Shown here: piece after piece, positions 57,033-58,358 of the stretch
Layout: every line of letters begins with the position of its first letter
Numbering within the stretch: position 1 is the first letter of the stretch
NCBI GenBank assembly: GCA_041576165.1
Contig: JBFGLM010000013.1
Location: 27,893-91,892 of the forward strand
Direction of reading: 5' to 3'
DNA from: Acidimicrobiia bacterium
GTDB taxonomy: Bacteria > Actinomycetota > Acidimicrobiia > Spongiisociales > Spongiisociaceae
DNA: 64,000 bases
Translations under genes and position numbers: made by a program
Notes under the pieces: generated by a model
Seen by the model: only the letters and a program-made list of their open reading frames with translations
What the model was told of the DNA's origin: nothing
Databases searched by the model: none

Positions 57033-57719
57033 ATGCTCCTCACAGTCATCATCGACTCGGCGCCTGATCGGGGGAGTCACGTCGCCACCGTCACCGCCCT
57101 CGAGGACGCGATCGCTCATGCGGGGGTTGACGGTGGTGTCCGCGTCGTACGCACCCCCGAAATCGACGCCGACTTTTTAGCGGACCCCGGCCACGGGATG
57201 CTCATCGGTCCCGGCTCGCCCTACGACGATCCGACGGCTGTGGAGGCCGCCATCCGCGTGGCACGGGAGCGTGGCGTCCCGCTCGTCGGGACTTGAGGTG
57301 GGTTCCAACATGTTCTGGTAGAGCATGCTCGCAACCTCGTTGGAATCACCGACGCCCGTCATGACGAATACGGAGATGCGCCCGGAACACCGGTCATCTC
57401 GATGCTGGAGTGTTCGCTGGACGGCGCCCAGATCATGGTCGACCTCGTTCCCGGCACGATCCTGCACGGGCTGTACGGCCGCGACGCTCAGGTAGAGCAG
57501 ACCACCTGTAACTACGGGCTCGTCCCGGAACTTGGGACGATCGCCTCGAGCGCCGGTATGACCGTGTCAGGGATCGACGGTACCGGCGAGGTCCGCGCGG
57601 TAGAACGCCCGGGCCACCCTTTTTTCATCGCAACGCTGTACCAGCCGCAGCTCAGGTCAACCCCGGAGGCGCCGCATCCGGTCCTCACGGGGCTGGTGCA
57701 AGCGGCCGTCCAGTCGTAA
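57033..57719 (+). CDS. CTP-synthase glutaminase-domain-related selenoprotein (228 aa with UGA read as Sec)
   Basis: PGSPY...PLVGT-TGA-GGFQH; ORFs 57027..57296 and 57402..57719 share a frame with no other stop; CNYG, HPFFIATLYQPQ. Confidence 0.82.
57309..57327 (+). promoter_or_regulatory. Bacterial SECIS-like hairpin
   Basis: CAUGUUCU-GGU-AGAGCAUG; G-starting loop begins 20 nt after the UGA. Confidence 0.6.
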
Positions 57720-57791
57720 AAAGCCACAGCCTCGCGAGGGCATCCATCCGGCGTTACCATCGCCGGCGCAGGAGCGTCTAGGAGGAGCCGG

Positions 57792-58358
57792 GTGATCTTC
57801 TCTGATCGAAGCATCAAAGAGGCCATCGCGGCCGGCCACATCGAAATCGATCCGTACGACGAGTCGTTCGTGCAGCCTTCGTCGATCGATTTGCGGGTGG
57901 ACCGATTCTTCCGGGTATTCGAGAATCACAAATACCCGCACATCGACCCGAAGACTCATCAACCAGACTTGACCACTGAGATCAAAGTGCCGAACCGTGA
58001 CCCGTTCATCCTGCATCCGGGTGAGTTCGTTCTCGGATCCACCTTCGAGCGTGTCAGGCTCGGCAACGACATCGTCGCCAGGCTCGAGGGAAAGTCCAGC
58101 CTGGGGCGCCTCGGCTTGTTGATTCACTCCACGGCCGGCTTCGTCGACCCGGGCTTCGACGGCTACCTGACACTCGAGCTGTCCAACGTCGCCAACCTTC
58201 CCATTGCGATCTATCCGGAGATGAAGATCGGCCAGATCAGCTTCTACCAGCTCTCCACGGAGGCTGAATTTCCGTACGGCTCACGCGAGACCGGCTCGAA
58301 ATATCAGGGCCAGCGAGGCCCCACCGCCAGCCGGGTGCATCAGGACTTCACCGGCTGA
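57792..58358 (+). CDS. dcd: dCTP deaminase
   Basis: [43 protein letters not shown]. Confidence 0.96.

Follow-up and report, generated by a model that had tools for sequence, protein, structure and literature searches.

The locus described here raises the question of whether an in-frame TGA in a small gene is a stop codon or a codon for selenocysteine (Sec), and what kind of protein would result if it is the latter. The gene lies in a 64,000-nucleotide stretch of DNA from an Acidimicrobiia bacterium (assembly GCA_041576165.1, contig JBFGLM010000013.1; the whole stretch is hereafter called the window), between a tRNA-Gly(CCC) gene and dcd, which encodes dCTP deaminase. An earlier note, made from the sequence by a reader without tools, had recognised a selenoprotein gene at this place, correctly as far as we can judge. 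Recoding signals, Cys/Sec pairing among homologues, Sec machinery in the genome and the predicted fold together make it very probable that the gene is genuinely decoded with Sec.

Sec and Cys at the UGA codon

The gene occupies a single plus-strand frame, which starts with ATG at 57033 (an alternative GTG lies at 57027), terminates with TAA at 57717-57719 and contains only one in-frame stop, the TGA at 57294-57296, in the context PLVGT-U-GGFQH. Reading through this codon gives a product of 228 amino acids (228 codons plus the TAA). The two same-frame open reading frames (ORFs) split by one TGA that the earlier note had described were placed correctly to the nucleotide. The features of the candidate gene, including a hairpin resembling a selenocysteine insertion sequence (SECIS), are as follows.

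57033-57719, plus strand: candidate selenoprotein gene for a stand-alone, class I glutamine-amidotransferase-like protein, a relative of the CTP synthase C-terminal domain related to NF004836 (profile, PDB alignment, structure model)
57294-57296, plus strand: UGA predicted to be read as Sec, residue 88, at the nucleophile elbow (codon comparison in 82 loci)
57309-57327, plus strand: SECIS-like hairpin in the codons of H93-V-L-V-E-H98 (criteria for bacterial SECIS elements, comparison of Sec forms)

We compared the homologous codon in 82 loci, comprising the window, one locus from a relative (L023, genome G004) and 80 loci found by scanning a single genome of each species. The codon was TGA in 31 loci, TGC in 35 and TGT in 16, with no other codon observed, so that the non-TGA loci encode Cys in 51 of 51 cases and never Trp or Gly. 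Cys or TGA was what the earlier note had expected homologues to carry here. The 31 TGA loci belong to several phyla, and in them both halves of the protein are conserved, with no further stops or frameshifts. In a quick maximum-likelihood tree of 97 rows (L087, L101 and L109, each shorter than 180 amino acids, were left out, and the PyrG row L026 is aberrantly long), the window falls into an all-Sec clade of nine rows from Acidimicrobiia, other Actinomycetota, Dormibacterota and Chloroflexota, with a Shimodaira-Hasegawa-like approximate likelihood ratio test (SH-aLRT) value of 99. A second all-Sec clade comprises 15 rows, mostly Rokubacteria (SH-aLRT 98). The codon itself is backed by an independently assembled contig (X2 record 1; another sample, same study), which spans 56923-58258 with three differences, none of them listed at the codon.

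Among the 120 best protein-database matches, 85 are C-terminal pieces of 131-151 amino acids, and 79 of these begin three residues ahead of an E-x-A-R motif (the first examples start M/VLVEHARN), the pattern expected where gene callers stop at the TGA. The 35 longer matches carry Cys at the Sec position in 34 cases and Trp in one (P0002). Sec forms of the NF004836-type family are systematically mis-annotated, with the practical consequence that most Sec-form database entries are cut at the TGA. P0002 is a full-length entry that looks like the outcome of gene calling with a code in which TGA is Trp, and the pieces among P0002-P0121 were called from a GTG or ATG directly past the TGA.

The hairpin downstream of the UGA

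The hairpin is formed by a 5' arm at 57309-57316 (CAUGUUCU), a GGU loop at 57317-57319 and a 3' arm at 57320-57327 (AGAGCAUG), and is the 8-bp structure that the earlier note had described. We assessed it with a script of our own that applies the criteria for bacterial SECIS (bSECIS) elements quoted in PMC13188914, namely a loop of 3-9 nt on a stem of 4-16 bp, a G in the first two loop positions, 16-37 nt from the UGA to the loop, and a minimum free energy (MFE) of -7.5 kcal/mol or lower. With 8 perfect pairs, a UGA-to-loop distance of 20 nt and an MFE of -8.1 kcal/mol, the window hairpin falls within all four limits.

It is the contrast between Sec and Cys homologues, rather than the window hairpin by itself, that argues for a SECIS element. 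A hairpin is centred on the same few alignment columns in 31 of 31 Sec forms, and the majority of Cys forms have none there. The median local MFE is -11.2 kcal/mol in Sec forms (n = 30) versus -4.3 kcal/mol in Cys forms (n = 51), and the median composition-controlled z is -1.59 (n = 31) versus +0.38 (n = 51). A strict bSECIS test demanding a perfect stem was passed by 19/31 Sec forms versus 4/51 Cys forms, and the four passing Cys forms have their hairpin at another spacing, 30-31 nt. The contrast was seen in each separate Sec clade.

Hairpins of the Sec forms fall into three registers, set by whether the His codon is CAU or CAC; slides of -2 and +2 in register perform equally well across the Sec sequences, and the Rokubacteria-type hairpin carries a 1x1 mismatch. 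As a single register is not supported, covariation was dropped as evidence, and hairpins predicted per sequence were compared with the Cys forms. The peptide encoded by the hairpin is H-V-L-V-E-H in Sec forms versus H-M/I-I/V-I/L-E-Y in Cys forms. The SECIS element thus seems to have shaped the protein, as judged from E-H or E-F in Sec forms versus E-Y in Cys forms, and the RNA structure of the hairpin and the sequence of the elbow helix appear to have co-evolved. The arms of the predicted SECIS coincide with the His codons of H93 and H98 and their neighbours; in Cys forms, position 98 is occupied by Tyr or Phe and position 94 by Met or Ile.

The earlier note had also observed, correctly, that GAGGU (57295-57299) and ACCUC (57334-57338) are complementary and could extend the stem. 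This extension is not conserved, the exact ACCUC occurring only in the window and in L042 in an alignment inspected by eye. An Rfam scan of 56500-58500 with E-values up to 10 returned the tRNA and chance matches only, and no SECIS family.

Family and fold of the protein

With Cys placed at the Sec position, the best profile match of the read-through protein was NF004836 (E 9e-65, 218 bits), aligning residues 4-225 to profile positions 4-227/228 and thus full-length in a stand-alone protein; a six-frame search against the same model gave 210 bits. PyrG (CTP synthase) models came second at 85-87 bits, leaving NF004836 ahead by 131 bits. From Pfam only GATase was assigned (2.3e-5), with weak Peptidase_C26 matches of a kind that fused family members show as well.

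The closest solved structures are CTP synthases (3nva, 3e-23). In the PDB alignment the TGA codon corresponds to the Cys of the CTP synthase GxCxGxQ motif, and LYQPQ to the HPE of the catalytic triad. The AlphaFold2 model, made with an alignment of 24 rows (predicted local distance difference test, pLDDT, 96.1; predicted TM-score, pTM, 0.93), has a strand at 84-87, residue 88 and a helix at 89-103, in the manner of a nucleophile elbow, and the top 50 Foldseek matches to it were all CTP synthases (glutaminase domains), with a best TMq of 0.92 (3nva). Alignment and model therefore agree with the earlier note in putting the TGA at the nucleophile-elbow Cys of a class I glutamine amidotransferase, and its reading of the triad motif as YQPQ is supported by the alignment. 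That no synthetase domain is present in the 57033-57719 product was likewise borne out. The genome also encodes a normal full-length PyrG (C32, 575-aa frame).

The GxUxG motif is present as G-T-U-G-G at residues 86-90. The window protein also carries the residues that distinguish the family from PyrG, which are S62-P63-Y64, H93, H110, C127, C159, R188 and Q206 with no His at 204; this list of derived residues is our own, from the 82-locus alignment. The product is accordingly predicted to be a stand-alone relative of the CTP synthase glutaminase domain with Sec at its elbow.

Such proteins have been predicted before. NCBI gives NF004836 the name '(seleno)protein'. The deep-Sep study (Xiao and Zhang 2025, PMC12013277) predicted in Desulfosediminicola ganghwensis a selenoprotein designated 'glutamine amidotransferase (COG0504, PyrG)', for which it describes both TGA- and Cys-containing homologues as well as a SECIS-like structure; its authors call verification still needed. 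A 2026 review lists the family as NF004836 with the motif GxUxG (PMC13188914). The earlier note's statement that Sec and Cys forms of this family are annotated is matched by the NCBIfam entry and by these predictions. A literature search found no paper on the function of the NF004836 family, and none under 'PRK06186'. The gene adds to this computationally predicted selenoprotein family an Acidimicrobiia-type member and an all-Sec clade across several phyla.

The window protein shares with the NF004836 family the stand-alone form of about 230 amino acids, the G-T-U-G-G elbow, the existence of Sec and Cys forms, the SECIS-like hairpin after the UGA, the absence of the catalytic His, and PGSPY, H93, H110, C127, C159 and Q206. 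It differs in its score, which lies under the NCBI curated cut-off of 260 bits, in its 44% identity to the NCBI-named Actinomadura protein P0004, in its place in a separate all-Sec clade, in YQPQ versus the commoner VPQ, and in E-H versus E-Y after the elbow helix.

Residue pattern and possible chemistry

To the 82 loci we compared 18 PyrG glutaminase domains from relatives. Family and PyrG have in common U/C88, Q92, E97, R100, E112, E155, E191, H195-P196-F197 and H215-P216. Found only in the family are PGSPY in place of the PyrG oxyanion loop PGGFG (93-99% conserved), T87, G89, F91, S128, L129 and R188. The positions C127 (96% conserved in the 82 loci), C159 (98%), H93 (98%) and H110 (94%) are occupied in PyrG by Ser, His, Cys and Ser, respectively, and Q206 (91% in the family) is Glu in PyrG. 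Compared with a PyrG glutaminase domain, the window protein thus keeps the fold, the GxCxGxQ elbow and the common residues, whereas it has no synthetase domain, Sec for Cys, QPQ for HPE and a changed oxyanion loop; C127, C159, H93, H110 and R188 are new.

The Cys-His-Glu triad is incomplete, since Sec or Cys is there and HPE reads QPQ in the window. A His preceding the conserved Pro was found in none of 154 motif-matched homologues (VPQ 63, QPE 42, QPQ 20, LPQ 10, others), and the catalytic His is lost family-wide. Sec has a low pKa; the Cys forms are also without the His, so its loss is not simply offset by this property. Given the lost His, the altered oxyanion loop and the new Cys and His residues, the glutaminase function has most likely been lost. 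Q92 and E112, residues that line the glutamine pocket in CTP synthase, are kept, which suggests that an amino-acid-like ligand may still be bound.

A Sec or Cys accompanied by extra thiols is the pattern of enzymes in which a thiol cascade resolves a covalent or oxidised intermediate, as in glycine reductase, methionine sulfoxide reductases and ArsC. The glycine reductase selenoproteins, methionine sulfoxide reductases and ArsC-type arsenate reductases resemble the present family in having one Sec/Cys-interchangeable residue and two conserved Cys, whereas their folds are unrelated, and redox activity, an Se-S bond and a thioredoxin partner would be ascribed to the family by analogy. Because two near-invariant Cys residues stand beside a Sec/Cys-interchangeable one, we tentatively favour, at slightly under even chances, covalent or redox catalysis in which Sec/Cys88 acts on a small amino-acid-like substrate, with C159 and/or C127 as resolving residues, over amidase activity. 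Bolder, and a shade less probable, is the idea that the elbow scaffold has exchanged amide hydrolysis for a chalcogen redox, possibly metal-binding, centre of U/C88, C127, C159, H93 and H110, with the SECIS encoded in, and reshaping, the first turns of the elbow helix; if true, this would be the first natural selenoenzyme on this fold. The remaining probability falls to other options, among them a metal site of Sec, Cys and His. Of the earlier note's stand-alone Sec enzyme with altered chemistry, the Sec, the stand-alone form and the lost triad stand, and the chemistry itself is read from conservation. The lost His, the three Cys/Sec positions and the two new His turn the matter into a concrete question, namely the role of Sec at a triad-less elbow of the hydrolase type.

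Fusions provide weak hints of a possible lead to the substrate. Among 10 long homologues, four carry a GNAT acetyltransferase domain (on either side) and two a methyltransferase domain, and ankyrin, TetR and kinase domains occur singly. When 12 long homologues were checked, 11 had at least one family motif (GTCxGFQH, or the His-less TLF/Y-x-P-x) and eight had both; P0181 is without the elbow motif and P0200 without the TLF-x-P-x motif. The fused members include P0181, P0184, P0200 and P0228 (also P0136 and P0234).

Sec machinery in the genome

Genes for Sec decoding, which the earlier note had proposed looking for as selA, selB, selC and selD, were all found in the genome, a metagenome bin with a contamination of 7.5%, on contigs other than that of the window.

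G000:C1:171385-172317 (locus L001), minus strand: selD, itself a selenoprotein gene, with an in-frame TGA in SFSHGAG*ACKLG
G000:C24:55512-58621 and C100:605-3619: two selA-selB pairs
C1:33376-33466 and C145:1292-1382: two tRNA-SeC(tca) genes, differing from each other

The first hairpin downstream of the selD TGA has a UGA-to-loop distance of about 13 nt, closer than the usual 16-37 nt. We link this machinery to the contig of the window through bin membership, G+C content and the presence of the trait in relatives. In counts that, like all those over relatives given here (family gene, tRNA-dcd arrangement, selA), include the unpublished genomes G028 and G039, selA scored above the cut-off in 23/24 relatives, so that Sec decoding characterises the order as a whole. 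Relatives carry one selA each, versus two in this bin; the doubled set may stem from two strains or organisms in the bin, or may be a real duplication. Across the family, selA was present in 5/5 sampled Sec-form genomes versus 2/5 sampled Cys-form genomes.

Neighbourhood of dcd

The flanking genes are arranged as follows.

56923-56994, plus strand: tRNA-Gly(CCC) (ARAGORN; Rfam tRNA, 72.8 bits)
57792-58358, plus strand: dcd, dCTP deaminase (Pfam DCD, 8.6e-50)

The end of the tRNA gene is 38 nt from the ATG of the selenoprotein gene, and the stop codon of the latter is 72 nt from dcd; the window spacer between tRNA and dcd is 56995-57791. Upstream, on the opposite strand, lies an extracytoplasmic function (ECF) sigma factor gene at 56066-56557.

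In 19/24 relatives, G004 included, dcd is preceded on its own strand by tRNA-Gly(CCC) at a distance of 19-236 nt with nothing between, and in a metagenome contig 18 nt separate the tRNA from the start of dcd (a weak case, from another organism). In two more relatives, G033 and G027, the spacer is longer, at about 1.0-1.1 kb, and is occupied by unrelated ORFs (196 and 333 amino acids), and in three the arrangement is different or the locus is without the tRNA. The G033 insert is a minus-strand ORF (L133:491-1500), and that of G027 lies at L135:386-1497. These comparisons suggest that tRNA-Gly(CCC) is the ancestral upstream neighbour of dcd, and, as the tRNA stands directly upstream of dcd in relatives, that the gene was inserted into this spacer in this lineage. 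The spacer, which holds different genes in three lineages, looks like a recurrent insertion site. Around the gene, searches for flanking direct repeats and for a shift in G+C found neither, so that the insertion either happened some time ago or left no trace.

Of 40 relatives, G004 alone carries the gene, likewise with TGA, on contig C437, with its tRNA-Gly and dcd on C655. None of the other 81 family loci has dcd in its stored flanks, the neighbours of the seven closest loci are heterogeneous, and the 82 loci share no conserved neighbours beyond shadow ORFs and generic ABC ATPases (the latter in 12). The same tRNA-gene-dcd order was found in a relative of about 92% identity from a sample of another study (X7 records 22 and 23).

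Discussion

Taken as a whole, the locus is best, and quite likely correctly, explained as a selenoprotein gene whose product has the PyrG-glutaminase fold with altered chemistry and which was inserted next to dcd. Under this explanation, UGA-88 would be recoded to Sec by SelB and Sec-tRNA(Sec), directed by the hairpin at 57309-57327; Sec at the nucleophile elbow would act as the catalytic residue; an adduct or selenenylsulfide at Sec/Cys88 would be resolved through C159 and/or C127; and the gene would have entered the conserved spacer between tRNA-Gly(CCC) and dcd in this lineage.

Several results weigh against this explanation. The window hairpin is not beyond chance, either over 76 nt (z = -1.0, with 32/200 shuffles folding as well) or over 36 nt (z = -1.6), and under synonymous recoding 38.6% of 2000 sequences fold equally well or better, which is not significant; this last result arises because the codons for HVLVEH come close to a palindrome (CAY GUN CUN GUN GAR CAY G). 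The G+C content is 0.56 in Sec forms versus 0.48 in Cys forms, and the sequences are kin, so that the p-values of the hairpin comparison (about 1e-10) are overstated. The NF004836 score is below the curated cut-off. The bin is contaminated and holds two sel sets, with the sel genes on other contigs. One fixed hairpin register for 29 distinct Sec sequences was also tried and rejected, as 62.9% of cells were paired and the covariation of 0.155 was matched by 86/500 shuffles.

The most serious competitor, which we consider unlikely but worth keeping in view, is that the product, though a genuine selenoprotein, has remained an amide hydrolase, a glutaminase or gamma-glutamyl amidase working through a seleno- or thioester with H110 or H93 in place of the lost His. 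In its favour are the fold, the pocket residues Q92 and E112 in common with PyrG, the weak Peptidase_C26 matches of the window protein and of fused members, and the Glu retained in 42 of 185 homologues (QPE); the kept Q92 and E112 together with this Glu-retaining subset would also fit a surviving amidase. Amidohydrolase-superfamily genes lie downstream in 2/7 of the closest loci (L044 and L046), although these are very large families, and the GNAT domains in 4/10 long fused members suggest a metabolism of small amine or amide molecules. What tips the balance toward covalent or redox catalysis is the lack of a catalytic His in all 154 motif-matched homologues, the replaced PGGFG oxyanion loop, and two extra near-invariant Cys residues with no obvious hydrolytic role; almost all known natural Sec enzymes, moreover, are redox enzymes. 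Far less probable is a tie to pyrimidine nucleotide metabolism through a unit with dcd, which the earlier note had raised. The two genes lie on the same strand, scanning the 72 nt between them for promoters and terminators turned up nothing, a terminator-like site included, the family descends from CTP synthase, and the order is kept in the 92%-identical relative; co-transcription with dcd is possible, as a positional accident. This proposal is weakened by synteny, however, as dcd lies in the stored flanks of 0/81 other loci with no conserved partner in its place save generic ABC ATPases, the tRNA abuts dcd in 19/24 relatives with other genes in the spacer of two more, and the G004 gene sits on a different contig from its tRNA-Gly and dcd. 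The adjacency to dcd therefore appears positional rather than functional.

That the TGA is a true stop, in a decaying pseudogene or between two small ORFs, is highly improbable. The frame is indeed broken under table 11, and callers split it, as the 85/120 truncated database homologues attest, but the TGA is kept through 31 loci in several phyla and in whole clades with both halves conserved, each half taken alone would be a broken domain according to the model, a hairpin accompanies all Sec forms, and selA occurs in every sampled Sec-form genome. Least probable of all, to the point that we would be surprised by it, is an assembly or sequencing error, or a Trp or Gly codon under an alternative code. 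The Trp deposited in P0002 and the origin of the sequence in a contaminated metagenome bin could be cited in its favour; against it, the independent contig from another sample agrees, all 51 non-TGA loci have Cys, and TGA also terminates dcd and further genes of the window. Since dcd uses it as terminator, TGA is an ordinary stop in this genome too.

Other features of the window

Three large minus-strand ORFs are without a Pfam match, at 58483-60396 (637 aa), 60449-62104 (551 aa) and 54436-56175 (579 aa). The third overlaps the end of the ECF sigma factor gene and may encode an anti-sigma partner. The first two have repeated S/T-x-D-G-x-x-W motifs that resemble Asp-box (BNR) repeats, and N-terminal hydrophobic segments are present in at least these two.

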